This document shows positions 3,143-25,547 of a stretch of DNA of 32,460 nucleotides, piece after piece. The stretch's first letter is position 1, and each line of letters begins with the position of its first letter. The DNA is from a candidate division WOR-3 bacterium (GTDB taxonomy: Bacteria > Hydrothermota > Tepidihabitantia > Tepidihabitantales > Tepidihabitantaceae). A program made the position numbers and the translations under genes. Under the pieces are notes generated by a model. That model did no database searches. It was not told the DNA's origin and worked only from the letters and a program-made list of their open reading frames with translations. The DNA is taken from contig JBDRUJ010000003.1 in the NCBI GenBank assembly GCA_039801285.1, forward strand, positions 1-32,460, written 5' to 3'.

Positions 3143-3790
3143 GTGAAGGGAGTAGTGGTAGTAGTGACAGTGGTCTTGGGTCTGGCGCTGGTGCCGCCGG
3201 TGGCGGCGCTGGACATCACTGGAGTCAGTTTCAGCGGCAGCTATCAGGTGGCGATTGACTCGGCGCTGCTTGAGACCGATTTCGGCGTCTTCATGTATCA
3301 GACCCCGGGCTGGGGCGGTGATACGATGGCGCTCGATACATTCCTCTTCTCGGATGTGGCATCCTGGCTCAGGTCGGTAAAGGTCTTCATGCTCGTTGAC
3401 AGTGTGCCCTATCGGCTGGATATTACCCATCCGATGCCGGACAGCTGGTACTATCTTGCGATGGTTCCGCCGGTAAGCCCTGGGGTCAAGTTCATACCGC
3501 CGCCCGGGCTTGAGGGATGTGCTGGTGGCGGGCTCGGACTGCGGTCGGTGGCGACGGTGGCGCAGGACCGGGTGGTGTTTGAGCTTGCCGGTTCCGGCTC
3601 TGGGCTTTTGGAGATTTTTGATGCGGCGGGCAAGCCGGTCTGCGCCATTCCGATATCAGGCTCTGGCACCAGCCGTCTTGTATGGCACGGCGACGACAGC
3701 CAGGGCCGACCGGTGCCCGTTGGGCTCTATTTCTGCCGGTTGCTGAGTCGTGCGGGCTCGGCCGTAACCAGGGTGGTTCTGATACGATAG
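3143..3790 (+). CDS. hypothetical secreted protein with T9SS/FlgD-Ig-like C-terminal tail
   Basis: GTG start 5 nt after AAGGAGG (3131-3137). Signal-like N-terminus VVVVVTVVLGLALVPPVAA. C-terminal tail: VVFELAGSGSGLLEIFDAAGKPV...GRPVPVGLYFCRLLSRAGSAVTRVVLIR. Confidence 0.7.
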   Translation: MKGVVVVVTVVLGLALVPPVAALDITGVSFSGSYQVAIDSALLETDFGVFMYQTPGWGGDTMALDTFLFSDVASWLRSVKVFMLVDSVPYRLDITHPMPDSWYYLAMVPPVSPGVKFIPPPGLEGCAGGGLGLRSVATVAQDRVVFELAGSGSGLLEIFDAAGKPVCAIPISGSGTSRLVWHGDDSQGRPVPVGLYFCRLLSRAGSAVTRVVLIR

Positions 3791-5534: not shown

Positions 5535-5570
5535 GGCAGGGGCAAATTTTGCCCCTGCCGCTGTTGTTTT
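5535..5570 (+). terminator. intrinsic terminator
   Basis: GGCAGGGGC (5535-5543) pairs perfectly with GCCCCTGCC (5551-5559) around an A/T loop. A T-rich run GCTGTTGTTTT follows. Confidence 0.7.
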
Positions 5571-5776: not shown

Positions 5777-8700
5777 ATGCGACCGAAAAGTAAAGGATTG
5801 GTGGCGCTGGCACTGCTGGCGATAGCCAGCCTCTGCCTAGCCGTCTCCGGTCCGATGACCGTCTCACCACCACTGCCGGTGCCTCACTACCACTGGGCAC
5901 CGACCGAGTTCCACGCCACGCCGTGCTACAATCCGGACTGCCATGAGGAGCATGTCTGGATGCCGGGTGGCGGGGCTGATGAGGTGCGGCCCGGGGTAGG
6001 CGGGGTTGATGGCCAGTGGGTTGCGGTTCCGGCACCGACCACCCAGCCGGACCGGATGTGCTCGGCCAACTGCTATGACGAAGTTCACGACATGCTCTAC
6101 ATGATTGGCGGTGACCCGGCCGGCTACTATGGCGTCAACAACTGCCAGCGGTTCAACCCGGTGACTAATGTCTGGACCGACCTGCAGCCGATGCCCGGTG
6201 CCCGAACCTGGCTTGATGGCGAAGGCGCCATCTGCCAAAGGCTGGGCAAGATTTACATCTTCGGCGGCTACACCGGTTCAGCCAACAACCAGACCTACGA
6301 ATACACCATTTCGACCAACTCCTGGACGACCAAGGCATCAATGACGAGCGCCACGCTCGCCTATCCCAGTGGCATCTGGCGCGACTCGCTGATGTACGTC
6401 TTCGGCGGTGCCGGGCCAAGCCTGAGCGGCTCCAATGTTGTTCAGGTCTACAACCCGTTCAACAACACTTGGGCAACCGCCACTTCGCTGCCCGAGGCCT
6501 GCGACATGGGCTCAGGGACCATCATCGGCGACACCATCTACATCACCAACGGGTATAACCGCACGTCTGGCGCACTATGGGCCAATGCGCGCAAGGGCTA
6601 CATCAACCCGTCCAACCCGCTCCAGATTACCTGGTCCAACTGGACCCTGGTCCCGACCTATGGGTTCAATGGCGGCACCACCCGGCTCAACGGCTGGGTC
6701 TATCGCCTGGGCGGATTCGGGACCCTTTATGTCGGCTCGGACCATGTTCGGGGCTGGCGCTACAACCCGGCAAACCCGGGGACCTATGAGACCCTGCCCT
6801 GGCCGCCCAACCCGCCCTATCGCCGGGGACTTGCCCGCTGCAACTTCCTGAACAGGCGGGAGGCTGGCAATGAGCTCTTCATCTTTGCCGGTGACGAGTA
6901 TGGCGACTGGAGCACGCCCAATCGCTACTACTTCCGGAACCAGTTCACCCCGCCCCACGATGTCGGCGTCTCGAAGATTCTTGAGCCGGCGACATCCCTG
7001 GTCTTCACCGGCGACTCCTTCCTGCCGACGATTGAGGTGAAGAACTACGGCCTGAACCCTGAGACCGATGTGCCGGTCACCTTCCAGGTGGAGTCGGCCG
7101 GGACCGTGGTCTATTCTGCGGCCGCGCTCGTCTCCCTGGGGATCGGTGAGACCGAAACGCTCTACTTCACCGACTACTGGTATGTTGGTGGTCCGCTCTG
7201 GACCGGTTACATGGTGAAGGCCTGGACTGCGCTGACCACTGACGTGATTCCGCAGAATGACACCGCATCCCGGATGTGTCTGGTCTCAACCGACACCATC
7301 ATCTCGCCTTCGGGTGCGACCCCGCCTTCGATTGACGGCTACCTGAACTTCGCAGGCGGCGAGTGGTCTGACGCCAACTTCGCAAACCTCTCCAATGTCT
7401 CAGGCTGGGGAGCATCACCACCGGTGCCCCATGGCCCGGATGCGGCCTATGCCTGGTTCAAGCATGATGGGAGCTATCTCTATCTGGCGTTTGCCTTCCC
7501 GGAGGGGATGACCCGTGATATCGGCGACCAGATTGGCTTCTATCTTGACGAGGACGGCGACGGTGAGTGGGAGCCGGATATGACTGAGGGCAACTACTGG
7601 ATATGGGTCAACGGCTCAAGCGCCGACGAGGTGCTCTTCCGCTGGCACCGGCCCGACACCTTTGGTCCGCAGGGACTGCCGGTTCCCGGTGCCCAGTCGG
7701 CAAGCGGGACCTTCAACGGCTATCTGACCTTTGAGGTGAAGCTGCCGTTTGGCACCCTGCCCTATCAGGTGAACATGAACCCGGCGAACGACACCGGTAA
7801 GCTGTTCATCTACATGATGGACAACGGCCAGATTATGGGCTGGTGGCCGGTGGCGATGGCTGAGGACTCCTGGCGTTCACCGCAGTTCTATGGCACCTAT
7901 ATCCTCCAGACCCTGCAGAGCGGCGATGTTGGCGTGACAGGCATCCCGGTTCCTGGCTCGGTGGTTGCACCTGGTGCGACCATCACCCCGACCGGAACCT
8001 GGAAGAACTTCGGCACGACCACCATGAACTTCACCGCCTACTACTTCCTCGATTCGGCCGGAACCAGGGTCTATTCGCAGTCCCAGCCGGCGACGCTCGC
8101 GGGCGGCGGCACCGTGAACCTCACCTTCCCGAACTACACCTTTGCGAACGACACGAGCTCGGGCTGGGTTGCCAAGTGCTCGACCGTGGCGTCCGGCGAT
8201 GTCAATCCGGCGAACAATGCCATGGCGAAGAGCTTCAAGGTGAGCACCGCACCGCCGGTCCTGGGCTGGAAGGAGATGAAGCAGGTGCCGCTGACTCCTT
8301 CGGGCAAGCAGGTGAAGGACGGCGGCTGGCTCTCCTTTGACCCGGGCGCTGATGGTGGATTCATCTATGCGGCCAAGGGCAACAAGACCCCGGACTTCTA
8401 CCGCTACCATGTTGACGGCGACTCCTGGCAGACGCTGGCCCCAATCAAGCCGGGCACCGAGAACAAGCTGCCGAAGAAGGGCTGCTACGGCTGCGCCGAC
8501 GGTGCCGGTCATGTCTTCATGACCAAGGGTAACAACACCCTGGGCTTCTGGGAGTACTTTGTCGAGGGCGACTCCTGGGTCCAGCTGACCGATGTCCCGC
8601 TCGGCAACAGCGGCAAGAAGGTGAAGGGCGGAACCGACATGGTCTATGTGGTCCTCAACGACACCGGCTATGTGTATCTGTTGAAGGGCTACAAGCAGGA

Positions 8701-9505
8701 CTTCTTCCGCTGGAACACCGTGACCGGCCAGTGGCAGACCCTGCAGGATGCGCCGGCCGGCTCCAACCCGAAGTGGGACAAGGGCTCCTGGCTGGTCTAT
8801 GACGGCGACCAGTTCATCTACGCCCACAAGGCGAAGTACCACGAGTTCTACAAGTACGACCTCGCGACCGGGACCTGGAGCGCACCGCTGCCCAAGGGGA
8901 TGCCGATGACCGGTTCCTCGGGCAAGACCAAGAAGTCGAAGGATGGTGGCTCAGCCGCCTACTACGACGGCGCCATCTACGCGCTCAAGGGTGGCAACAC
9001 CTGCGAGTTCTGGTGCTACTTTGTGGAGGGCGACTCCTGGAAGGAGCTGGACCCGATGCCTGAGGTCGGCTCGACCGGGAAGAAGAAGCGGGTCAAGGCC
9101 GGCGGCGACATCGTCTCGGCTGGCAACTACCAGTTCTACGCCCTGAAGGGTAACAAGACCGTGGAGTTCTGGTGCTACGGCGGCGCGACAGTTGCCAGCG
9201 CGCTTGAGCCGCTGCGCCAGGGCGTGATGGCCGAGAACCTGGTTGCCCAGAAGCCGGGAATCACCATCGTGCCCAATCCGCTCTCCAATGGTCGGGCGGT
9301 CCTCCGCTACAACCTGCCCAAGGCCGGGCCGGTCCGGCTGGTCATCTACGATGTGACCGGTCGTGATGTCCTGAGCTCCAGCTTTGTGGCGAGCCACAGC
9401 GGAGCCGCAACCCTTGACCTGCGGAGCCTGAGCGCTGGTGTCTACCTCGTGAAGCTTGATGCGGATGGTTATCGGACCACGCAGAAGCTGACCGTGGAGC
9501 GCTAG
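5777..9505 (+). CDS. large secreted multidomain protein: Kelch-type blades, CARDB-like Ig modules, CBM9/DOMON-like module, six-blade ~50-aa repeat propeller, T9SS type-A-like CTD
   Basis: The ORF track starts at 5693. ATG 5777 is preferred because AAAGGAGG (5763-5770) precedes it and a signal peptide follows (MRPKSKGLVALALLAIASLCLA). Kelch-like strands: MLYMIGGD, KIYIFGGYTG, LMYVFGGAG. CARDB-like: HDVGVSKILEP..., GDVGVTGIPVPGS.... Six repeats of KG(N)xTxEFWxY...GDSWxxL. Tail: IVPNPLSNGRAVLRYNL...GVYLVKLDADGYRTTQKLTVER. Confidence 0.9.
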   Translation: MRPKSKGLVALALLAIASLCLAVSGPMTVSPPLPVPHYHWAPTEFHATPCYNPDCHEEHVWMPGGGADEVRPGVGGVDGQWVAVPAPTTQPDRMCSANCYDEVHDMLYMIGGDPAGYYGVNNCQRFNPVTNVWTDLQPMPGARTWLDGEGAICQRLGKIYIFGGYTGSANNQTYEYTISTNSWTTKASMTSATLAYPSGIWRDSLMYVFGGAGPSLSGSNVVQVYNPFNNTWATATSLPEACDMGSGTIIGDTIYITNGYNRTSGALWANARKGYINPSNPLQITWSNWTLVPTYGFNGGTTRLNGWVYRLGGFGTLYVGSDHVRGWRYNPANPGTYETLPWPPNPPYRRGLARCNFLNRREAGNELFIFAGDEYGDWSTPNRYYFRNQFTPPHDVGVSKILEPATSLVFTGDSFLPTIEVKNYGLNPETDVPVTFQVESAGTVVYSAAALVSLGIGETETLYFTDYWYVGGPLWTGYMVKAWTALTTDVIPQNDTASRMCLVSTDTIISPSGATPPSIDGYLNFAGGEWSDANFANLSNVSGWGASPPVPHGPDAAYAWFKHDGSYLYLAFAFPEGMTRDIGDQIGFYLDEDGDGEWEPDMTEGNYWIWVNGSSADEVLFRWHRPDTFGPQGLPVPGAQSASGTFNGYLTFEVKLPFGTLPYQVNMNPANDTGKLFIYMMDNGQIMGWWPVAMAEDSWRSPQFYGTYILQTLQSGDVGVTGIPVPGSVVAPGATITPTGTWKNFGTTTMNFTAYYFLDSAGTRVYSQSQPATLAGGGTVNLTFPNYTFANDTSSGWVAKCSTVASGDVNPANNAMAKSFKVSTAPPVLGWKEMKQVPLTPSGKQVKDGGWLSFDPGADGGFIYAAKGNKTPDFYRYHVDGDSWQTLAPIKPGTENKLPKKGCYGCADGAGHVFMTKGNNTLGFWEYFVEGDSWVQLTDVPLGNSGKKVKGGTDMVYVVLNDTGYVYLLKGYKQDFFRWNTVTGQWQTLQDAPAGSNPKWDKGSWLVYDGDQFIYAHKAKYHEFYKYDLATGTWSAPLPKGMPMTGSSGKTKKSKDGGSAAYYDGAIYALKGGNTCEFWCYFVEGDSWKELDPMPEVGSTGKKKRVKAGGDIVSAGNYQFYALKGNKTVEFWCYGGATVASALEPLRQGVMAENLVAQKPGITIVPNPLSNGRAVLRYNLPKAGPVRLVIYDVTGRDVLSSSFVASHSGAATLDLRSLSAGVYLVKLDADGYRTTQKLTVER

Positions 9506-9528
9506 GGTTCAGACCCTAACGGGTTTCA

Positions 9529-9563
9529 CAGGACGGGCCCGGATTCCGGGCCCGTCCTGTTTT
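9529..9563 (+). terminator. strong intrinsic terminator
   Basis: Perfect 14-bp stem CAGGACGGGCCCGG (9529-9542) / CCGGGCCCGTCCTG (9546-9559), ATT loop, then TTTT. Confidence 0.85.
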
Positions 9564-9607: not shown

Positions 9608-11419
9608 ATGCTCAGCACCATGCGCCGCCGTGTCCGACTTATAATGATAATCGTCGCCGTGGCATTTGTCGCCGGCTTTCTGATGAGTGAGCTCTGGCAG
9701 CTCATCCGGTCAAGGGAGCGGGGCCGGCCATCCCGCCGCGCCGGGGCAATCGGTGAGATTGACCGTGAGCCGATAACGATAGAGCAGTACCGGCAGGCAC
9801 GGGAGTTCATAAGTCGCCGGTTCCAGCGGGACAGCCTGTTCCGTGACTTCACAGCCGACGATGAGGCGCGGATTGACAAACTCGCCTGGGACTACCTCAC
9901 CAGCGAGCTCATCTGGGCGCGGCTTCTGAAAAAGACGAGGCTCAACATCACCGATGGCGAGATTGAGTGGATTATCACCAATGTGCCGCCCCAGGAGCTG
10001 ACGCAGCGGTCCGAGCTTCAGACCGACGGTCAGTTCGACACCGCCAAGTACCACCAGTTGCTGCGCGTCCCGGAGAATCAGCCCTTCTTTGCCAGTTACG
10101 CCCGGGAGATTTTTGAGCAGCTCCGGCAGCAGAAGCTCCAGCTCTATGCCATGGCGAACTACCGGATTACCAATGCGGAGCTAACCGATATCCAGCGCCG
10201 CGCCAACAGAACCGCTGTCGTCACCGCACTCCGTTTCCGTCCGCCCAGGGAGCTGCCCGAACCGACCGATGAGGAGGCCCGGGCGTGGTACAAGGCCCAT
10301 CCTGAGCAGTTCCGGGCCCAGAAGGAGGTGCGGGAGGTGCGGTGGGTTCGGGTTCCCATTTCCATTACCCAGCAGGATTCGCTCGACGCCCAACAGCGCA
10401 TTGAGCAGGCATACCAACGGATCAGGGCTGCCGACACCGCCTCGTTCCGCGACTCGCTGGAGATGGCGATGCTCACCGATGGTGATTACCAACCGGACAC
10501 AGCTCCGGTCCGGTTTCTCCGCTCCGAGCTCGACCCGAGAACCGACTCCCTCATCCGCAGGCTCAAGCCCGGCCAGTTCACTCTTCCCTATCAGACGGTA
10601 AACGGCTGGCAAATCACCGTCCTGGACAGCATCAGGCAGGATACGGTCTTTATCCGACGCATCCGGACAAGAATCAAGCCTGACAACACCCGCGAGATTG
10701 CGGCGCTTGATTTGGCCCGTGCCGTCATTGAGCTGGCGAATGCCACTTCGCTCGACTCGGCTGCCCGCGCCAACAACCTGACTGTCGGTCCGATGCCGGT
10801 GATGATTGTCGGTGGCGAGCTTTCCCGACCGCCCGGCACGCTCTACGCCCCGGGTCAGCTTACCGAGTGGGCAACCCATGCCCGCAAAGGTGAAGTCATG
10901 GATGTCCCGCTCCGGGGCAGCGACGGCTACTACATCTTTGCCCTTACCAATATCACTCCGGCCCAGACCCGGCCCTTTGACGAGCAGACCAAGCAGGCCG
11001 CTAAGTGGCGGGTCCGGGCTGAGAAGGCGAACCAGCAGACATTAGCAGCCGCCCGGCAGGCTTTCCAGGAGCTCAGGGCGGGCAGGAGGCTTGAAGAGTT
11101 CGCCCAGGAACACCCGGACGAGGTTGAGGCTACCCACGACACCATCAATGGCATCTTTGATTACCGCGTCCGGGCGATGAGGGGTGTGGAGTTCGTTGCC
11201 GCGGCGCTGGCACTCGAGCCGGGGCAGACCTGCGGCCCGATTCAAAGCCATTCGGTGGCTTACATCATCAGGTGCGACACACTCCTTCCCGCGGTATCAC
11301 CATATTCGGACAGCATCTACAGCCAGGAGCGACAGCAGCAGATTTTTCAGGCTATCTGGCAGAGCCTCTGGAAGCAGCCCCAGATAAAAGACTACCGCGC
11401 TACCACCCCCTACTACTAA
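9608..11419 (+). CDS. PpiD/SurA-like periplasmic chaperone (membrane-anchored, degenerate parvulin-type PPIase domains)
   Basis: 603 aa. N-terminal anchor RLIMIIVAVAFVAGFLMSELW. Long helical SurA-N-like region. Parvulin-like cores: EVRWVRVPI...LKPGQFTLPYQTVNGWQITVLD, and a second GEVMDVPLRGSDGYYIFALTNI. An alternative in-frame ATG exists at 9620. Confidence 0.7.
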   Translation: MLSTMRRRVRLIMIIVAVAFVAGFLMSELWQLIRSRERGRPSRRAGAIGEIDREPITIEQYRQAREFISRRFQRDSLFRDFTADDEARIDKLAWDYLTSELIWARLLKKTRLNITDGEIEWIITNVPPQELTQRSELQTDGQFDTAKYHQLLRVPENQPFFASYAREIFEQLRQQKLQLYAMANYRITNAELTDIQRRANRTAVVTALRFRPPRELPEPTDEEARAWYKAHPEQFRAQKEVREVRWVRVPISITQQDSLDAQQRIEQAYQRIRAADTASFRDSLEMAMLTDGDYQPDTAPVRFLRSELDPRTDSLIRRLKPGQFTLPYQTVNGWQITVLDSIRQDTVFIRRIRTRIKPDNTREIAALDLARAVIELANATSLDSAARANNLTVGPMPVMIVGGELSRPPGTLYAPGQLTEWATHARKGEVMDVPLRGSDGYYIFALTNITPAQTRPFDEQTKQAAKWRVRAEKANQQTLAAARQAFQELRAGRRLEEFAQEHPDEVEATHDTINGIFDYRVRAMRGVEFVAAALALEPGQTCGPIQSHSVAYIIRCDTLLPAVSPYSDSIYSQERQQQIFQAIWQSLWKQPQIKDYRATTPYY

Positions 11420-11472: not shown

Positions 11473-11545
11473 GGCCCCATCGTCTAGCGGTTTAGGACAT
11501 CACTCTTTCAAGGTGAAGGCACCGGTTCGACTCCGGTTGGGGCCA
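11473..11545 (+). tRNA. tRNA-Glu: tRNA-Glu (anticodon UUC)
   Basis: Hand-folded cloverleaf. Acceptor GGCCCCA/TGGGGCC, D-arm GTCT-AGCGGTTTA-GGAC, anticodon stem TCACT/GGTGA with loop CTTTCAA, T-arm ACCGG-TTCGACT-CCGGT, discriminator A. No encoded CCA. Confidence 0.9.
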
Positions 11546-11555
11546 GAGATTCTGT

Positions 11556-11628
11556 GCGGGAGTAGCTCAGTTGGTAGAGCATCACCTTGCCAAGGTGGGG
11601 GTCGCGGGTTCAAATCCCGTCTCCCGCT
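11556..11628 (+). tRNA. tRNA-Gly: tRNA-Gly (anticodon GCC)
   Basis: Acceptor GCGGGAG/CTCCCGC, D-arm GCTC-AGTTGGTA-GAGC, anticodon stem TCACC/GGTGG with loop TTGCCAA, T-arm GCGGG-TTCAAAT-CCCGT. No encoded CCA. Confidence 0.9.
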
Positions 11629-11631
11629 TTC

Positions 11632-11703
11632 GGCGGCTTAGCCAAGCAGTAAGGCAGCGGTCTGCAAAACCGCAATGCTCGGGTGCAAATCCCGAAGCCG
11701 CCT
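11632..11703 (+). tRNA. tRNA-Cys: tRNA-Cys (anticodon GCA)
   Basis: Acceptor GGCGGCT/AGCCGCC, anticodon stem GCGGT/ACCGC with loop CTGCAAA, T-arm TCGGG-TGCAAAT-CCCGA, short D-stem as is usual for tRNA-Cys. No encoded CCA. Confidence 0.85.
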
Positions 11704-11709
11704 TTTTCC

Positions 11710-11797
11710 GCCGGGATGGCGGAACAGGCAGACGCAAGGGACTTAAAATCCCTCGGTCCAGTTATGGGCTGTGCCGGTTCGAGTCCGGCTCCCGGCA
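11710..11797 (+). tRNA. tRNA-Leu: tRNA-Leu (anticodon UAA), class II with long variable arm
   Basis: Acceptor GCCGGGA/TCCCGGC, anticodon stem AGGGA/TCCCT with loop CTTAAAA, long variable arm (CGGTCCAGTTATGGGCTGT), T-arm GCCGG-TTCGAGT-CCGGC, discriminator A. Confidence 0.9.
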
Positions 11798-11798
11798 C

Positions 11799-11871
11799 GG
11801 GCCGTTAGCTCAGGAGGCAGAGCACCTGATTTTTAATCCGGTGGCCGCAGGTTCGAGTCCTGCACGGCCCA
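11799..11871 (+). tRNA. tRNA-Lys: tRNA-Lys (anticodon UUU)
   Basis: Acceptor GGGCCGT/ACGGCCC, D-arm GCTC-AGGAGGCA-GAGC, anticodon stem CCTGA/TCCGG with one U.C mismatch at 29:41, loop TTTTTAA, T-arm GCAGG-TTCGAGT-CCTGC. It starts 1 nt after tRNA-Leu ends. Confidence 0.85.
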
Positions 11872-14978: not shown

Positions 14979-15116
14979 ATAGAGCGCATCCTTTCTGTCA
15001 TTCCCGCGCAGGCGGGAATCTATTCTTGGATTCCCCAGCTTTCGCGGAGGCGGAGCCTGTTGGAGTGGACCCCTGCGAAGGCAGGGGCAGGAATGGACGA
15101 AAGGAGCCGAAGTGAA
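14959..15116. repeat. REP/MITE-like palindromic insertion with flanking 21-bp direct duplication at the rnfD/rnfG junction
   Basis: GACGAAAGGAGCCGAGATGAA (14959-14979) and GACGAAAGGAGCCGAAGTGAA (15096-15116) are 19/21 identical. Two perfect hairpins lie between them: ATTCCCGC-GCAG-GCGGGAAT (15000-15019) and CCCCTGC-GAAG-GCAGGGG (15070-15087). A related TGTCATTMCCGC....GCGGGAAT copy sits at 23953-23979 in reverse orientation. Confidence 0.75.
14975..15115 (+). CDS. element-spanning 46-codon mini-ORF (coding status uncertain)
   Basis: ATG 14975 overlaps the rnfD stop as ATGA. TGA 15113-15115 overlaps the rnfG GTG as GTGA. Translation: MNRAHPFCHSRAGGNLFLDSPAFAEAEPVGVDPCEGRGRNGRKEPK. It is below the 60-aa cutoff of the ORF track. 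Confidence 0.2.
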   Translation: MNRAHPFCHSRAGGNLFLDSPAFAEAEPVGVDPCEGRGRNGRKEPK

Positions 15117-17800: not shown

Positions 17801-20800
17801 GTGGTCCCTGTCGGCTCCCGTGAAGCGAGGCCTGGTGGCCTCTGTCGCAGCCGGCTCCGCTGGCTGACTGTTCAGCTATTGATAAACGATGCCCTTGCTC
17901 TCCTTCTGATAGCAATAGCCACTTGTGCGGTCGGGGTTATTCTCGTGGCACTTCTGTTCTGGAGCGGCTGGGTCTTGATGGTATTACTTCTGCCCTGGGC
18001 CGGCCTGGCCTGGCGCTGGTTCAAGGGAGTCGGCCTTCGGTCAGTCGCAAAGGGGGTTGAAAAGCATTTTCCTGAAGTTCGGGGCAGACTGGTTGCGGCA
18101 CTGGAGCTGAGTCAATACCAAGCCGGTGGTCGTGAGGGTTATTCGCTGGAGCTGGTGAAGGCGGCGGTCCGTGAGACCGAGACTGTTCTGGTCAGTCTGC
18201 CGCTGAAGCGGCTGGTCAGACGAAGGCGACTCATATGGGCCGGGGTCGGGACACTTGCCGGACTGCTGCTCTTGGTAGGGCTCTGGCTGGCACTGCCATC
18301 AAGGATGCGGCCCGGGCTTGTCAATGCCTTCAACCCATCAGGACTGGAGATTGAGTTCCGGGTGGCCCCGGGCGATACTGCAGTGCTGCCCGGGGGGCAG
18401 GTGACACTGCGCTGCCAGGTGCGGCCGGCAGACATTTCCCGGTCGGTCAGGCTGGTGTTGCGGGATAACTCGGGACGCCGGATTCATTTCCGACGCCTGA
18501 ACCTCAAGCCCACAGACCGGAATGCGGAATGCGGAATGCGGATGGCGGATGGCGGATGGCAGGAGGCGTGGGCCCTTGCCGAGGTTACCGTTCCTGCCGG
18601 AGAGGGGTTTTCCTACCGGTTCCGACTCCTCTCCCGTGCTTCTGAGGAATTCCGGGTCAGTGTGCTGGAGCCTTTGGTCCTGAAGCGGCTGTCGTTCACC
18701 TACCGCTATCCCGATTATTCGGGTCTGGCCGAATTCCGTTCAACCAGCACCGAGATTACCGCCCTGAAGGGGACGGTGATTGAGTTTGAGGGCGCAGTTC
18801 AGAGGCCGGTCAGTGCCGGAAGGTTTATCATCGGTTCCGAGACCACCGGTTTGGCGATTGACCCAAGGGATTCGGCACACTTCTCCGGCAGCTTCCAAGT
18901 CCTGACCGAGGGCATGGGCCGGCTCGAGCTTGTTGAGAAGGAAAGTCCCCAGCCCGTTGCTACAGTCCGAGTCAGGGCGGTTCAAGATGAGGCGCCGTTC
19001 GTGAAGCTCTTTCTGCCGGGCCGGGATGTTGACCTGCCGATGAGCATGAGGATTCTGCTGGGTATCAACAGCCTGGACGATTACGGGCTGACCGGGCTCT
19101 GGCTTCATTATGGCAAGGAGAGCCTTGACCACCGGCTGCTGGTCAAGCGGCTTGGAGGCCGGCGCGAGGACACCACCCTCTTCACCTGGGACCTTTCTCA
19201 GTCCGGGCTGCTGCCCGGAGAGGTGCTGCACTACTGCGTGACGGTTACCGACAACGACCCGTTTTCCGGGCCCAAGACCGGCCGGTCCGAAATCTATGCG
19301 GTGCGCTTTCCCACAATGGCCGAGATCTACGATGCCGCAGTTCACCAGACCGAGAGGACGGCAAGCGAACTCGGACCGCTCGGCGCCCGGCAGGAGGAAA
19401 TCTCCCGAGAGCTGACCCGGGTGACCGAGGAGCTGAAGCGAACCCGGGAGCTCTCCTGGGAGGAGCGGAAGGCTCTGGAACAGGTGATGGAGAAACAGGA
19501 AGAGTTGATGGAGCAGCTGGAGGGGCTGAAGCAGCAGATTGCCCGGGCGGAGCAGGAGCTGCTTGACAACCTGACACTGGACCGGGAGACCCTGGAGCGG
19601 CTCGGCCAGCTCCAGGAGCTAGTCCGGCAACTCTTGCCCAAGGAGTTGCAGGAGGCGCTTGCCGAGCTGCGCCAGAAACTTACGGAGAGCTCGCCCCAGC
19701 TCGCCGAGGCGCTCAGCCGGCTGAGTCTGGAGCAGGAGCGGCTCAGGGCGGGGATTGAACGGGCGCTGGAGCTGCTCAAGCGGGTCATGGAGGAGCAGCG
19801 GCTGGAGGCGCTGGCGCGTAAGGCTCAGGAGCTTGCCGAGGCTCAGAAGAAACTGACCGAGATGATTCCCAAAGCACCGGCCGAGGAGCTGGCACGACGC
19901 CAGGCCGACATCAATGCCGGTCTGGACAGTCTGGAGCGGGCGGTTGCCGAGCTTGCCCAGGAGCTCTCGGAGCCGGAGATTGCCGAATCGCTTGCCGGCA
20001 TCGCCGACAGTCTGAGACGGTCCGAGGCTCTGGAGATTGCTGAAGGGCTGAAAAGCCAGTTGCAGCAGGGGAGCAAGGCAAACGCCCGGGAACAGAGCGG
20101 CAGGCTGGCACAGGGTTTGAGCCGGCTCGGGGAGGGGCTGAAGTCGCTGAGCGAGCGGCTCAAGAAGAAACGTTCCGGTGAGATTGCCCTCAGGCTGGCG
20201 GCACTGACCGATGATATTCTGATGGTTTCCAACGAAGAGGAGAACCTGGAGACGGAACTGAGAGGCGGTGCGGAGAGCGGAACCTTTGCTCCCAGGCAGA
20301 TGGGGCTCTACGAGGCGACGCGACTGGCGGCCGAGAGTCTGGCCGGACTGGCGGCCCAGACGATGGTGGTGCCACCCGAGCTGGGACAGCTTCTCGCCCA
20401 GGTAATGGAGAGCATGGCGCAGGCGGCGCAGAGGATGGTTGACAATCAGGCCTATGCCAGCCGCAATGAGATGGCCAATGCCCGCCAGGGATTGAACAGT
20501 GCGGCCCGGACATTGCTGAACATTCTGGCCCAGATGCAGAAGGGCGGCGGGCTCTCAGGTGGCTGGGAGAGCCTGATGGAGCAGCTTTCGCGCATGACCG
20601 CGGAGCAGATGGCGATAAATGCCGGGATGAGCGGAATTCCGATTCCCATTCCGGTTTCCGGGCTGAGTCAAGCGCAGCTTGAGCAACTGGCACGGCTGCT
20701 TGGGGAGCAGCAGGCGCTGCGTCAGGCACTGGAGCGGATGCTGCAGGAACTGGGTGGAGAGCGTCCCGGACTGACTTCGAGCCTTGAGGCGCTTGTTGAG

Positions 20801-21112
20801 GAGATGAAGGCGGTGGAGCGGGACCTGGCAGAGCTGAATGTTGACCGCCGACTGATTGAACGGCAGGAGAACATCCTCTCCCATCTTCTGGATGCCCAGC
20901 GCAGCCTGCGCCAGCAGGGGTTCAAGGAGGAGCGGGAGAGCGAGGTGGGAAAGCCGTTTGAAATTCGCGCCCGACCCGAGTTGCCAATGGACCGGGGGGA
21001 GCGGAACCGGCTCCTGCGTGAGGAGCTGATACGGGCATTGAAACAGGGTTATCCACAGGAATATGAGCAGATGATTCGCGACTACTTCGAAAGGCTGCTG
21101 AACCGGCCATGA
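17801..21112 (+). CDS. DUF4175-like membrane-anchored coiled-coil protein
   Basis: 1103 aa. Two N-terminal TM helices (ALALLLIAIATCAVGVILVALLF, WVLMVLLLPWAGLAW). Family-like segments from memory: EKHFPEVRGRLVAALEL, VRAVQDEAPFVKL..., DDYGLTGL. About 500 aa of E/L/R-rich heptad coiled coil. C-terminal ...YPQEYEQMIRDYFERL. The start codon is uncertain. Confidence 0.8.
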   Translation: MVPVGSREARPGGLCRSRLRWLTVQLLINDALALLLIAIATCAVGVILVALLFWSGWVLMVLLLPWAGLAWRWFKGVGLRSVAKGVEKHFPEVRGRLVAALELSQYQAGGREGYSLELVKAAVRETETVLVSLPLKRLVRRRRLIWAGVGTLAGLLLLVGLWLALPSRMRPGLVNAFNPSGLEIEFRVAPGDTAVLPGGQVTLRCQVRPADISRSVRLVLRDNSGRRIHFRRLNLKPTDRNAECGMRMADGGWQEAWALAEVTVPAGEGFSYRFRLLSRASEEFRVSVLEPLVLKRLSFTYRYPDYSGLAEFRSTSTEITALKGTVIEFEGAVQRPVSAGRFIIGSETTGLAIDPRDSAHFSGSFQVLTEGMGRLELVEKESPQPVATVRVRAVQDEAPFVKLFLPGRDVDLPMSMRILLGINSLDDYGLTGLWLHYGKESLDHRLLVKRLGGRREDTTLFTWDLSQSGLLPGEVLHYCVTVTDNDPFSGPKTGRSEIYAVRFPTMAEIYDAAVHQTERTASELGPLGARQEEISRELTRVTEELKRTRELSWEERKALEQVMEKQEELMEQLEGLKQQIARAEQELLDNLTLDRETLERLGQLQELVRQLLPKELQEALAELRQKLTESSPQLAEALSRLSLEQERLRAGIERALELLKRVMEEQRLEALARKAQELAEAQKKLTEMIPKAPAEELARRQADINAGLDSLERAVAELAQELSEPEIAESLAGIADSLRRSEALEIAEGLKSQLQQGSKANAREQSGRLAQGLSRLGEGLKSLSERLKKKRSGEIALRLAALTDDILMVSNEEENLETELRGGAESGTFAPRQMGLYEATRLAAESLAGLAAQTMVVPPELGQLLAQVMESMAQAAQRMVDNQAYASRNEMANARQGLNSAARTLLNILAQMQKGGGLSGGWESLMEQLSRMTAEQMAINAGMSGIPIPIPVSGLSQAQLEQLARLLGEQQALRQALERMLQELGGERPGLTSSLEALVEEMKAVERDLAELNVDRRLIERQENILSHLLDAQRSLRQQGFKEERESEVGKPFEIRARPELPMDRGERNRLLREELIRALKQGYPQEYEQMIRDYFERLLNRP
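18518..18559. repeat. heptanucleotide tandem repeat inside a CDS: (CGGAATG)x3 (CGGATGG)x3
   Basis: Read directly: CGGAATG at 18518, 18525 and 18532; CGGATGG at 18539, 18546 and 18553. The 42 nt equal 14 codons and encode RNAECGMRMADGGW. Confidence 0.9.
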
Positions 21113-22752
21113 GATTAGCAATTCTCATTCTGGTGATTGCCGGTCTGCCGGTTTTTGCTCAGACCACCCGCTCGGGCCTACTGCTTGAGCAGGCAGGACA
21201 ACTGGAGCGTGCCCTGAAGGAGTTCCGGGATGTGCTGGAGAAAAACCCGGACGACCTCAACGCCTATCAGGGGCTTCTGCGGGTTGCCGCCAGGCTGGGC
21301 CGGTATGACACACTAGTGGCGGTCAGCCAGCGGCTCAGCGGGCGGAATCCCGATAAGCCCGATTTTGCCCTCGGACTGATTGAGGGTCTGTTCGGCTCAC
21401 AGCGCAACAACGCAGCGGTTGCCGAATCCCGGGCTGTGATGCGGCGCTGGCCGGAACGGGTGCTGCAGCTCGCCGGGGTGCTGAAGAAATGGCGGGAGTT
21501 CGGCACCGCCATTGAACTTTTGTCCGGTCGGCGCTCAGAGCTCAGCCCGAACGACCCGTCGCTCAGCACCATCGCTGCCGAGCTGGTGGAGCTTTATGGT
21601 TTGAACAGCCAGCCGGTCCTCGCAGCGAAGGAGATTGTCGGAATAGTCAATCAATGGCCCGGGATGGCCGAAGGTTATATCGGCCGACTGGGACTCCTGG
21701 CGACCCGAAGCAACGGCCAGCAGCTGCTCAGTGAACTGTCAAAGATTGGCAATGTCCGGTTACGGGCAAAGGCCCAGGCAACGGTCTATATTGCCCTGAA
21801 CCGGGAAAGAGAGGCGGTTCAGGTGATGAGGGATGTTGCCAGCGACCAGGAGCTTTATCAGTTTGCTCATGAGTGTGAGGCTCAGGGAGCGCTGACCGCG
21901 GCACTGCTGATATATCAGGAGCAGAAGGCTCATGCCGACCAGGCACGCATCCTCCGCCGGCTCGGCAGGCTCCAGGAGGCGCTGGCGATTCTTGCCCTTG
22001 ACCAGGGAACAGGGGCGATGATGGAGCTTGGTGACCTGCGCCGGGAGGCGCTCCGCGACTACCAGGGCGCGGCCGAGGCCTATCGGAAGGTTCTGAAGCA
22101 GCGGCCCGGGTATGAACCGGCGCTGTTCGGACTGGCAAGCGCCCAGCTCGGGCTTGGTGACCTCACCGGTGCCCGGACAACCTTGGCTCAGCTCAGCCAG
22201 CCCACCGACCGCTCAATCCTGCTTGAGGCGAAGCTCGCCTTCTATCAGGAAAGGTTCGACTCAGTTCCGGTCATAGTCCAAAAGCTGGCAACCCAGTTTC
22301 CTAAAAGTCCTCTGGTGAATGACGGTCTGGAGCTGGCACTGCTCACCCAGAGCAGCGGCGACCTTGCCGGTCTGGCAAAGGCGCTTCTGGACTATGAGGC
22401 GGACAATCACGAAAGGGGCAAGGCCCGTGCCCGTGCTTTGGCAAAGGGGAAGGACGAGATTGCGGCCAGGGCAGCCCTGCTCCTTGCCCAGTTTTTGAGA
22501 AGGGAAGGCAGGCCCAAAGAGGCGGTTGCCGAGCTTGATACTCTATTGGGCCGGTTCCCAAAAAGCCGGTTCCGGGCAAGGGCGATGCTGGAGCAGGCCC
22601 GCATCTTCTATGACGACCTCAGGGATGAGGGGCGGTTCCGAGAGAAACTTGAAGAGCTGATTCTTGCCTTTCCCGGCTCACCCTATGCTCCCCTGGCCCG
22701 CAGCATTCTGGCAACAACGAAGGTTTCAGTCGAGCCGGGCGGTATCCATTAG
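21109..22752 (+). CDS. secreted tetratricopeptide-repeat (TPR) protein
   Basis: ATGA overlap with the upstream gene. Signal peptide MRLAILILVIAGLPVFAQ. All-helical, A/L/R/E-rich sequence with TPR-like periodicity (e.g. AYQGLLRVAARLGRYD, ALFGLASAQLGLGDLTGA). Confidence 0.8.
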   Translation: MRLAILILVIAGLPVFAQTTRSGLLLEQAGQLERALKEFRDVLEKNPDDLNAYQGLLRVAARLGRYDTLVAVSQRLSGRNPDKPDFALGLIEGLFGSQRNNAAVAESRAVMRRWPERVLQLAGVLKKWREFGTAIELLSGRRSELSPNDPSLSTIAAELVELYGLNSQPVLAAKEIVGIVNQWPGMAEGYIGRLGLLATRSNGQQLLSELSKIGNVRLRAKAQATVYIALNREREAVQVMRDVASDQELYQFAHECEAQGALTAALLIYQEQKAHADQARILRRLGRLQEALAILALDQGTGAMMELGDLRREALRDYQGAAEAYRKVLKQRPGYEPALFGLASAQLGLGDLTGARTTLAQLSQPTDRSILLEAKLAFYQERFDSVPVIVQKLATQFPKSPLVNDGLELALLTQSSGDLAGLAKALLDYEADNHERGKARARALAKGKDEIAARAALLLAQFLRREGRPKEAVAELDTLLGRFPKSRFRARAMLEQARIFYDDLRDEGRFREKLEELILAFPGSPYAPLARSILATTKVSVEPGGIH

Positions 22753-24518: not shown

Positions 24519-25547
24519 ATGCGTTTCGTTGACCAGGCGACAATCCGGGTTCGGGCCGGTGACGGCGGCAAAGGCTGCATCTCGTTCCGCCGCGAGAAGT
24601 TTGTGCCCAGAGGCGGGCCGGATGGCGGTGACGGCGGGGATGGCGGCTCGGTTGTCCTTTTGGGCGACGCTCGGCTGATGACACTGGCTGACCTGGAGTA
24701 CCGCCGGTTTTACCGGGCTGAGGATGGCCAGCACGGAATGGGTAAGGACCGGCACGGCAAAAACGGAAGGGATGAGGTCGTCCCGGTGCCTCTGGGCACC
24801 GACGTTTTTGATGCTCAAAGCGGTGTGAAGCTGGGCGAGGTCCTGAAGCCCGGCCAGATGCTGATTGTGGCCCGGGGAGGCAAGGGCGGCAGGGGTAATG
24901 CCCGGTTTGCAAGCCCGACCAATCAGGCGCCGCGAATTGCCGAGCCGGGAGAGCCGGGTGAGGAAAAAGAGCTCAAACTGGTGCTGCGGCTTCTGGCCGA
25001 TGTCGGGATTGTGGGACTGCCCAATGCCGGGAAGTCAACCCTTCTCGCCGCTTTGACCAGCGCACGTCCCAAGATTGCCGACTATCCCTTCACCACCCTG
25101 ACACCGAACCTGGGTGTTCTGGAGACCAGGAACTTCCGCTGGACCATTGCCGATATGCCGGGAATCATCAAAGGTGCGCATCAGGGCAAGGGGCTGGGGC
25201 TGGCATTTCTCAGACATATTGAGCGGACGAGGATGCTGGTCTTTGTGATTGATGCGACGGCAGAACGGCCTGAGGATGATTACCGGCAGCTCTGTGAGGA
25301 GATTGAGAGGTTCGAGGAGGGCGGAGGGCGGAAGGCGGAAGGCGGTCTGACCCCGAGGATTCTTGAGAGGCCGCGGCTGGTCGTGATGAACAAGATCGAC
25401 CTTCTCGAAAGTGACGCCCTGCTCACAGGACGTCAAGCCCTGCGCCTGGATGTTCCGGTGTTATGGGTTTCGGCATTGCTGGGAACCGGGATTGAGGAGT
25501 TGCGGAAGGAGATTGAACGACAGATAGGCGGAAGTCCGCAATGCTGA
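24519..25547 (+). CDS. obg: GTPase Obg/CgtA
   Basis: Obg fold N-terminus MRFVDQATIRVRAGDGGKGCISFRREKFVPRGGPDGGDGGDGGSV. G1 GLPNAGKST, G3 DMPG, G4 NKID. Confidence 0.95.
   Translation: MRFVDQATIRVRAGDGGKGCISFRREKFVPRGGPDGGDGGDGGSVVLLGDARLMTLADLEYRRFYRAEDGQHGMGKDRHGKNGRDEVVPVPLGTDVFDAQSGVKLGEVLKPGQMLIVARGGKGGRGNARFASPTNQAPRIAEPGEPGEEKELKLVLRLLADVGIVGLPNAGKSTLLAALTSARPKIADYPFTTLTPNLGVLETRNFRWTIADMPGIIKGAHQGKGLGLAFLRHIERTRMLVFVIDATAERPEDDYRQLCEEIERFEEGGGRKAEGGLTPRILERPRLVVMNKIDLLESDALLTGRQALRLDVPVLWVSALLGTGIEELRKEIERQIGGSPQC
25314..25345. repeat. heptanucleotide tandem repeat inside obg: GAGGAGG GCGGAGG GCGGAAG GCGGAAG GCGG
   Basis: Read directly, with units starting at 25314, 25321, 25328, 25335 and 25342. 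It encodes EEGGGRKAEGG between the G3 and G4 motifs. Confidence 0.85.

Follow-up and report, generated by a model that had tools for sequence, protein, structure and literature searches.

A heptanucleotide array in a DUF4175-like gene

The window considered here is the whole analysed stretch of 32,460 nucleotides, taken from contig JBDRUJ010000003.1 of a candidate division WOR-3 bacterium that is present in hot-spring metagenomes. It contains a gene for a DUF4175-like, membrane-anchored protein, and in the first quarter of the open reading frame (ORF) of this gene lies an array of heptanucleotide units, referred to below as the tract. The gene, the two blocks of the tract and the sequence immediately 3' of it are as follows:

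17801-21112, plus strand: DUF4175-like host gene, encoding a membrane-anchored protein of 1103 aa
18518-18538, plus strand: block A, (CGGAATG)3, codons 240-246, encoding RNAECGM
18539-18559, plus strand: block B, (CGGATGG)3, codons 247-253, encoding RMADGGW; the period-7 identity extends to C18560
18560-18577, plus strand: tail 3' of the tract, CAGGAGGCGTGGGCCCTT, encoding QEAWAL; non-repetitive or degenerate

In agreement with the initial annotation of this DNA, the tract consists of six perfect 7-nt units in two blocks of three, in frame in an ORF of 1103 codons. Its 42 bases (18518-18559) contain zero mismatches, and Tandem Repeats Finder reports period-7 repeats at 18518-18542 and 18538-18560, both with 100% matches. 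Base 18518 opens codon 240, and the encoded peptide, RNAECGMRMADGGW, is the plain three-frame reading of the heptamer units. Judging from its sequence, the tail at 18560-18577 may represent decayed heptamer units.

Comparison with shuffled sequences excludes a chance origin of the tract. The two-unit pattern CGGANNGCGGANNG has seven matches in the window versus 0.16 expected, and none of 100 shuffles reaches seven. Similarly, the window contains three perfect period-7 runs of 2.6 units or more, and 50 codon-shuffled replicates contain none. No such runs are present in approximately 108 kb from five WOR-3 relatives; the runs in the window are therefore specific to the lineage and probably young. 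The tract region has no predicted RNA structure (minimum free energy of -35.3 kcal/mol versus a shuffle mean of -35.4, z = 0.04), no units in reverse orientation lie near the tract (the closest weak match is 2 kb away), and terminal repeats and a target-site duplication are absent. A link that had been proposed between the tract and a palindrome resembling repetitive extragenic palindromic (REP) sequences, ATTCCCGC-GCAG-GCGGGAAT (15000-15019), was dropped, as the enrichment of its arm is not significant (4 matches versus 1.6 expected; 9 of 100 shuffles reach 4).

The host protein has 99 homologues, the closest with 59% identity. Several of these are named as DUF4175 family by their sources and PF13779 is found in distant ones, while a Pfam search with the 1103-aa window protein itself returned no match. 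In every related WOR-3 contig that was fetched, a TPR protein gene follows the DUF4175-like gene, and this fixed synteny indicates that the latter is a conserved core gene of the lineage.

The tract encodes an insertion in a predicted surface loop

When residues 171-340 of the window protein were aligned with 23 homologues, a 20-column gap was found in 22 of them, opposite RNAECGMRMADGGWQEAWAL. The tract residues, which had been raised as a possible insertion relative to the DUF4175 family, are indeed one: the 14 residues of the tract and the tail QEAWAL together make up an insertion of approximately 20 residues. At this site the closest homologue has nine unrelated residues encoded by non-repetitive DNA, and neither a peptide similar to that of the tract nor a repeat at the site was found among the 23 aligned homologues.

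An AlphaFold model of a fragment of the host protein, built with the 23-homologue alignment, is a beta-sandwich with a mean predicted local distance difference test (pLDDT) score of 86.5. In the model, the tract corresponds to fragment residues 70-83, inside a coil (68-87) that is flanked by strands at 58-64 and 88-95. This coil is the least confident stretch of the model, with a block mean of 57 and values below 50 at residues 73-75. The tract is thus predicted to lie in a surface loop of an N-terminal beta-sandwich, a domain that is itself predicted to be outside the membrane.

A different insertion (…GKDIGEENRQGRQDRQGRT…) is present one loop upstream in the DUF4175-like homologues P0005, P0006, P0009 and P0011 and in a WOR-3 relative (L122), where it is encoded by a 9-nt repeat, (CGCCAAGGA)~3, at 7179-7204. 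This second repeat-encoded insertion suggests that loops of this domain repeatedly accept insertions derived from repeats. The same relative has nine imperfect period-7 arrays of several different units in 20 kb (including 201-245, 3524-3705, 6384-6416, 9796-9897 and 18384-18413), some of them just 5' of start codons, as well as an array with 12/24/48-nt periodicity at 460-706. Period-7 arrays are not established as a general WOR-3 trait, given that those of L122 are imperfect and the five relatives have no perfect run.

Simulated changes of one or two units truncate the host protein

A 7-nt unit is not divisible by three, and the earlier expectation that a slip would shift the frame of the ORF was borne out by simulation. 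Changes of +/-7 or +/-14 nt lead to a stop at codons 277-299, whereas changes of three units keep the frame. Therefore, only frame-preserving lengths can persist. All of the heptamer units involved are stop-free in all six frames, which is a precondition for the survival of such an array inside an ORF.

Two alleles of equal length co-exist in hot-spring metagenomes

Allelic variation was examined in Logan contigs of five hot-spring metagenome runs (X1-X5). One contig of run X2 (record 11) extends ungapped from 18506 to beyond 18900, and thus includes six units, both unique flanks and 340 nt downstream. A contig of run X1 (record 1) spans 18200-18553 and confirms the upstream junction. Both of these flank-anchored contigs differ from the window by AT>TG at 18536-18537, which makes the third CGGAATG unit into CGGATGG. 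The result is (CGGAATG)2(CGGATGG)4, an allele of unchanged total length that replaces two residues (N and E by M and D) and keeps the frame. A second contig of run X2 (record 12), with lower depth, has the form with three CGGAATG units that is found in the window, and thus both alleles co-exist. The exact change of a unit into its neighbouring unit is what would be expected as a product of intra-array slippage or conversion. However, the flanks also differ, at three or four positions in approximately 660 bases, and with a single event at the tract it cannot be called hypermutable.

The insertion is present in all contigs of this species that cover the site. No length variants, indels, joints or out-of-frame alleles were found at the tract in the contigs of the five runs, which drop rare variants. 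In run X3, where a strain of 93% identity is present, the contigs end at 18500 and restart at 18606. Word depth on the tract is 40-140, compared to approximately 5 in the flanks, because its words also turn up at other places in these metagenomes. Many contigs with other flanks contain them, for instance contigs of 2-10 kb with a depth of 9-12, including in run X5, where the window organism is scarce; at least one further member of the community therefore has such arrays. Additionally, at loose ends corresponding to window position 18514 in runs X1, X4 and X5, a GTCGAGC/GTCGAGG array directly abuts a CGGAATG-type array, which points to mixed heptamer assemblages in the hot-spring community.

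These data bear on the proposal in the initial annotation that the tract is the footprint of an expansion filtered by selection for frame, with copy number changing in sets of three units. The first part finds partial support in the unit-level change between the 3+3 and 2+4 forms and in the truncation that frame-breaking lengths would cause. The partition into sets of three did not stand: a 2+4 allele exists, and the count is 4.3 units in the obg tract described below and 3, 4 or 5 in tracts of the family that are in frame elsewhere, in other genomes. The constraint is on the total inserted length only and not on the 3+3 partition.

A second heptamer tract lies in obg

The initial annotation had also pointed to a related tract in obg, and this tract is real, is of the CGGANNG unit type and is likewise an insertion. 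The gene and its tract are as follows:

24519-25547, plus strand: obg, with GTP1/OBG plus GTPase domain (PF01018, E = 3.8e-59; 1UDX, E = 5e-101)
25316-25345, plus strand: second heptamer tract, (GGAGGGC)2(GGAAGGC)2GG, 30 nt, 4.3 units

In the CGGANNG phase the units read CGGAGGG, CGGAAGG and CGGAAGG, each of which is one substitution away from CGGAATG or CGGATGG. The probability that a random 7-mer of the window is equally close to the units of the first tract is approximately 0.055, and the likeness of the two tracts is thus suggestive and no more. The encoded peptide, EGGGRKAEGG, falls within a 12-residue Obg insertion, EGGGRKAEGGLT, which neither of two solved structures (1LNZ and 1UDX) contains and which 23 of the 24 best Obg representatives in a search of 1.84 billion proteins also lack. 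The gene is essential in model bacteria, and its tract is identical in runs X1, X2 and X4. The occurrence of two heptamer tracts in 32 kb, both as loop insertions in conserved proteins, argues for a mutational process acting genome-wide and not for a device of one gene.

(CGGAWKG)n arrays recur across phyla

A scan of GTDB (one genome per species) for (CGGAWKG)3 returned at least 120 loci, and a scan of IMG/VR likewise returned at least 120 loci, compared to 38 and 28 IMG/VR loci for two shuffled-unit controls. A CGGWAKG scan was not used as a control, since it overlaps the target pattern when W = A. The GTDB matches listed are from Acidobacteriota, Planctomycetota, Verrucomicrobiota, Chloroflexota, Gemmatimonadota, some archaea and others, and among them the most frequent unit is CGGATTG, ahead of CGGAATG, CGGAAGG and CGGATGG in that order. 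In IMG/VR the pattern is common on viral or proviral contigs, some of which have several arrays.

Many tracts occur in inverted pairs. Among the matches listed, 27% of 134 tracts have an inverted partner within 400 nt, and the orientation is forward-then-reverse in 32 cases versus the opposite in 4. The members of these pairs are 8-324 nt apart (for example, L038 3098-3167, L007 5820-6016, L075 4342-4469 and L053 5462-5537), and some pairs immediately follow stop codons in the space separating convergent genes, where they resemble hairpins or terminators built from heptamers. A control heptamer, CAGGWKG, also makes inverted pairs in IMG/VR, concentrated in a few large contigs.

The longest (CGGAWKG)n arrays are intergenic and annotated as spurious ORFs of less than 100 aa. 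Similarly, a search for one heptamer-encoded peptide in a set of 5.8 billion proteins found almost only ORFs of less than 100 aa over long intergenic arrays. Classification of 142 GTDB tracts as coding or non-coding on the basis of ORFs is unreliable at high GC, and ten cases with checked translation were therefore used. All ten lie inside long ORFs, nine of which were named by Pfam. The hosts include two UvrA genes, PurL, ArsA, GcvP and an FtsX permease, in addition to a Ser/Thr kinase and a protein with a CarboxypepD_reg domain that was read as a TonB-dependent-type receptor. In a NuoM/N-type ORF the tract may sit between two fused genes, and the tenth host, taken for an ArnT-like glycosyltransferase, has no Pfam match. 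The in-frame loci include the following:

L079, 2091-4949, minus strand: UvrA gene with an inverted array pair in frame
L005, 3452-7012, minus strand: long ORF with an in-frame tract
L032, 1271-5470, minus strand: long ORF with an in-frame tract
L069, 532-3636, plus strand: Ser/Thr kinase gene with a paired array; the tract is within the Pkinase domain match, in the activation loop
L092, L093 and L003: further in-frame loci

Peptides added by in-frame arrays to conserved genes of other phyla are, for instance, QSAIRNPQSA and IADCGLAIAD, and the site in ArsA is a linker. In a long-read acidobacterial metagenome-assembled genome (L018, 7297-7868), three heptamer tracts lie within approximately 600 nt of an HrpB-like helicase gene, and a hand count places the conserved segments LERLG and IDAASLTPIG in different frames across the first of these tracts. 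This difference could reflect a genuine frameshift, or else an indel error of the long reads.

A search of Joint Genome Institute (JGI) metagenomes for (CGGAATG)2(CGGATGG)2 returned one unrelated intergenic soil locus (L123) and no further allele of the host gene. On the soil contig, ATTG, ATTA, AATG and ATGG units are mixed in one intergenic array. A full-text literature search for tandem copies of CGGAWKG-type units or the peptides that they encode returned nothing relevant.

Genomic surroundings of the host gene

Pfam matches identify an rnf operon (RnfD, G, E, A and B) 5' of the host gene, and the TPR protein gene, rsmD, coaD and obg 3' of it. In three relatives (L124, L125 and L127), the TPR gene is followed by genes for a PASTA Ser/Thr kinase, a zinc-ribbon/PEGA protein and a beta-propeller protein; after the TPR gene of the window (21109-22752), rsmD-coaD-obg stands in place of these three genes. 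Five tRNA genes (Glu-TTC, Gly-GCC, Cys-GCA, Leu-TAA and Lys-TTT) are tightly clustered at 11473-11871, between the end of an ORF at 11419 and the start of the rnf operon, and an Rfam scan of the window found these five tRNAs and nothing else. Perfect GC-rich hairpins at 9528-9560, 5535-5559 and 15000-15019, with arms of 16, 12 and 8 nt, closely follow the ends of ORFs at 9505, 5514 and 14978, respectively, and are probably terminators or attenuators. The last of these hairpins is the ATTCCCGC-GCAG-GCGGGAAT palindrome discussed above.

Comparison with known repeat systems

According to Mrazek et al. (2007), as cited in PMC4679880 and PMC4692102, heptanucleotides are the most abundant class of long simple sequence repeats (SSRs; units of 5-11 nt) in many prokaryotes, and polymerase slippage has been proposed as their origin. 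From the same citing passages, units that are not a multiple of three are rare in coding regions and long SSRs are mainly non-coding. A long SSR consists of at least three perfect or near-perfect head-to-tail units of 5-11 nt beyond chance expectation, and the tract has this structure. It further resembles prokaryotic long SSRs in that its 7-nt units are perfect and head-to-tail, a slippage origin can be proposed, evolution is by whole units, and the genome is high in GC and from a non-pathogen. Two loci of the same period lie in 32 kb (18518-18560 and 25316-25345). In contrast to such repeats, both tracts of the window are in frame within conserved genes. The tract thus fits the known kind of long SSRs and differs from it by this in-frame place.

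Some heptamers form dispersed families, such as the short tandemly repeated repetitive (STRR) sequences of Calothrix. Others are GGGAATC in Xanthomonas and GGGGA(C/T)T in Nostoc (PMC4692102), and TAACTGA in Beggiatoaceae, cyanobacteria and Bacteroidetes (PMC4679880). Like these, (CGGAWKG)n occurs at many unrelated loci in distant taxa, more commonly than comparable heptamers, with variable copy number and with variant units mixed in single arrays. The form of the unit can also be likened to known families, as a G-rich four is followed by an A/T-rich three (GCGG-AAT/ATT versus GGGG-ATT and CGGG-AAT). However, the GGG-containing units of known families can form G-quadruplexes, whereas CGGAWKG has GG runs only. 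The published families are enriched in intergenic regions near gene ends and depleted in coding sequence (PMC4692102, PMC4679880). The (CGGAWKG)n family at large is likewise mainly intergenic, with many arrays between convergent genes, whereas both tracts of the window are internal to ORFs.

Rickettsia palindromic elements (RPEs) and other miniature transposable elements with inverted repeats (MITEs) insert in frame into ORFs (PMC10969869). For repeat DNA that is added in frame to unrelated proteins, RPEs are the closest analogue: in both cases, unrelated conserved proteins gain a short foreign peptide from repeat-derived DNA at tolerant sites, as the DUF4175-like protein and Obg do in the window. 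Heptamer arrays elsewhere (in uvrA and the kinase gene) also form inverted pairs in the manner of RPEs. However, RPEs are elements of approximately 150 bp with conserved sequence, whereas the tract is a simple direct array of tandem heptamers without an inverted arm or hairpin, and the window shows no defined element boundaries or signs of transposition around it.

Origin of the tract

Overall, the tract is probably a heptanucleotide SSR that has been shaped by slippage or conversion and is tolerated as a neutral in-frame loop insertion. It would be a (CGGANNG)n long SSR, grown by strand slippage or intra-array conversion in a surface loop tolerant of length changes, where it would most likely be a neutral passenger. 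The two blocks of variant units would be the usual mark of unit-by-unit homogenisation within an array, and the boundary between them may still be moving in the population, as the 3+3 and 2+4 forms of equal length suggest. Selection would remove alleles whose length is not a multiple of three, because these truncate the protein after approximately 280-300 residues. The tract would persist because its inserted length is a multiple of three, its units are stop-free in six frames, and a loop between strands tolerates the added residues.

Several points weigh against this interpretation. Slippage is a proposed mechanism, and contigs would miss rare length variants. At this site, the window protein is 11 residues (33 nt) longer than the nearest homologue and 20 residues (60 nt) longer than most others; neither 33 nor 60 nt is a multiple of 21, and the insertion is therefore not a simple whole-unit expansion from an ancestral seed. 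Slippage from random seeds does not explain the CGGA..G shared by the two tracts of the window, nor does pure slippage explain the recurrence across phyla at three to four times or more the level of the shuffled-unit controls. Some sequence-specific process or horizontal spread may be involved. Additionally, neutrality is an assumption.

The main alternative is that the array was inserted rather than grown in place, and that a dispersed (CGGAWKG)n element, which may be mobile or have spread horizontally, left the tract as a solo or decayed copy. In this it would be like RPEs, which settle in frame in coding loops. Such an element would account for the excess of loci over controls, the frequency and orientation bias of the inverted pairs, the in-frame pairs in UvrA (L079) and the kinase (L069), and the solo tracts in PurL, GcvP, ArsA, FtsX and UvrA genes. 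It would also agree with the CGGA..G common to both tracts of the window, with the mixture of ATTG, AATG and ATGG units in one soil array, and with the occurrence of the tract with other flanks in the same metagenomes, even in run X5. Nevertheless, this origin is considered unlikely. The tract has neither an inverted partner nor terminal repeats or a target-site duplication, the arrays are not linked to a transposase or any other enzyme, and other heptamers form arrays and inverted pairs too, so that the architecture is not specific to the unit. Moreover, the units differ by locus (AATG/ATGG versus AGGG/AAGG), and local growth fits such differing units better than the copying of a defined element.

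The initial annotation had alternatively suggested a frameshift-based switch, in which slips of one or two units would turn the DUF4175-like protein off (leaving a product of approximately 280-300 aa) and on. In contingency loci, SSRs mediate phase variation through frameshifts, as with the tetranucleotides of Haemophilus influenzae (PMC2651432, PMC11868660). The tract is similar in that it occupies part of the first quarter of the ORF with a unit indivisible by three, positioned so that the gain or loss of one unit would shift the frame and truncate the product, and unit-level changes of the array do occur in the population. However, contingency genes have long uninterrupted tracts, whereas here two different units are present in three copies each, and short interrupted runs have low slippage rates. 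Contingency genes also belong to variable, dispensable classes (surface antigens, restriction-modification, lipopolysaccharide), whereas the host gene is conserved with fixed synteny throughout WOR-3. Since homologues lack a repeat at the site, the like tract in obg is invariant and no out-of-frame allele appears among the contigs of the five runs, a switch is very unlikely.

It is even less probable that the peptide itself is under selection, for instance as a loop with Cys, Met or Trp that serves in binding or redox chemistry, the DNA repeat being incidental. The retention of the insertion in all covering contigs of the species and its predicted exposure on a domain outside the membrane could be taken to favour such a role. 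However, the peptide is an exact translation of a perfect DNA repeat with zero synonymous divergence, the 2+4 allele changes two of its residues with no effect on the frame, no homologue has a similar peptide, and model confidence at the site is low. Finally, although the raised depth over the tract and its words shared elsewhere can mislead assemblers, a collapsed or chimeric repeat or another artefact of assembly or sequencing is extremely improbable, because the independent X2 contig crosses both junctions, the X1 contig confirms the upstream one, and the frame is unbroken, with homology to either side of the tract.

Implications

Taken alone, the probably neutral tract is a small curiosity. 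It illustrates how a core gene can harbour a repeat with a unit indivisible by three, with selection acting on total length alone in a tolerant loop, and this is survivable only because the unit is stop-free in every frame. For annotators, it is a warning that RNAECGM, RMADGGW, QSAIRNP and RIADCGL in predicted proteins are products of DNA repeats and not protein motifs.

The cross-phylum heptamer family is a more interesting lead than the tract itself. A speculative reading is that (CGGAWKG)n arrays are unrecognised selfish or enzymatically generated heptamer DNA that crosses phyla and colonises loops of housekeeping proteins in frame. The family is found in Acidobacteriota, Planctomycetota, Verrucomicrobiota, Chloroflexota, Gemmatimonadota, WOR-3 and viral or proviral contigs. 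On this reading its typical form would be the forward-then-reverse array pair, and the colonised loops would include those in Obg, UvrA, PurL, GcvP and kinases. The window would then hold two colonisations, and the boundary-shifting alleles would be a sign of ongoing activity. Should some specific mechanism or vector exist, these arrays would be a new case of selfish DNA shaping protein loops outside Rickettsia.

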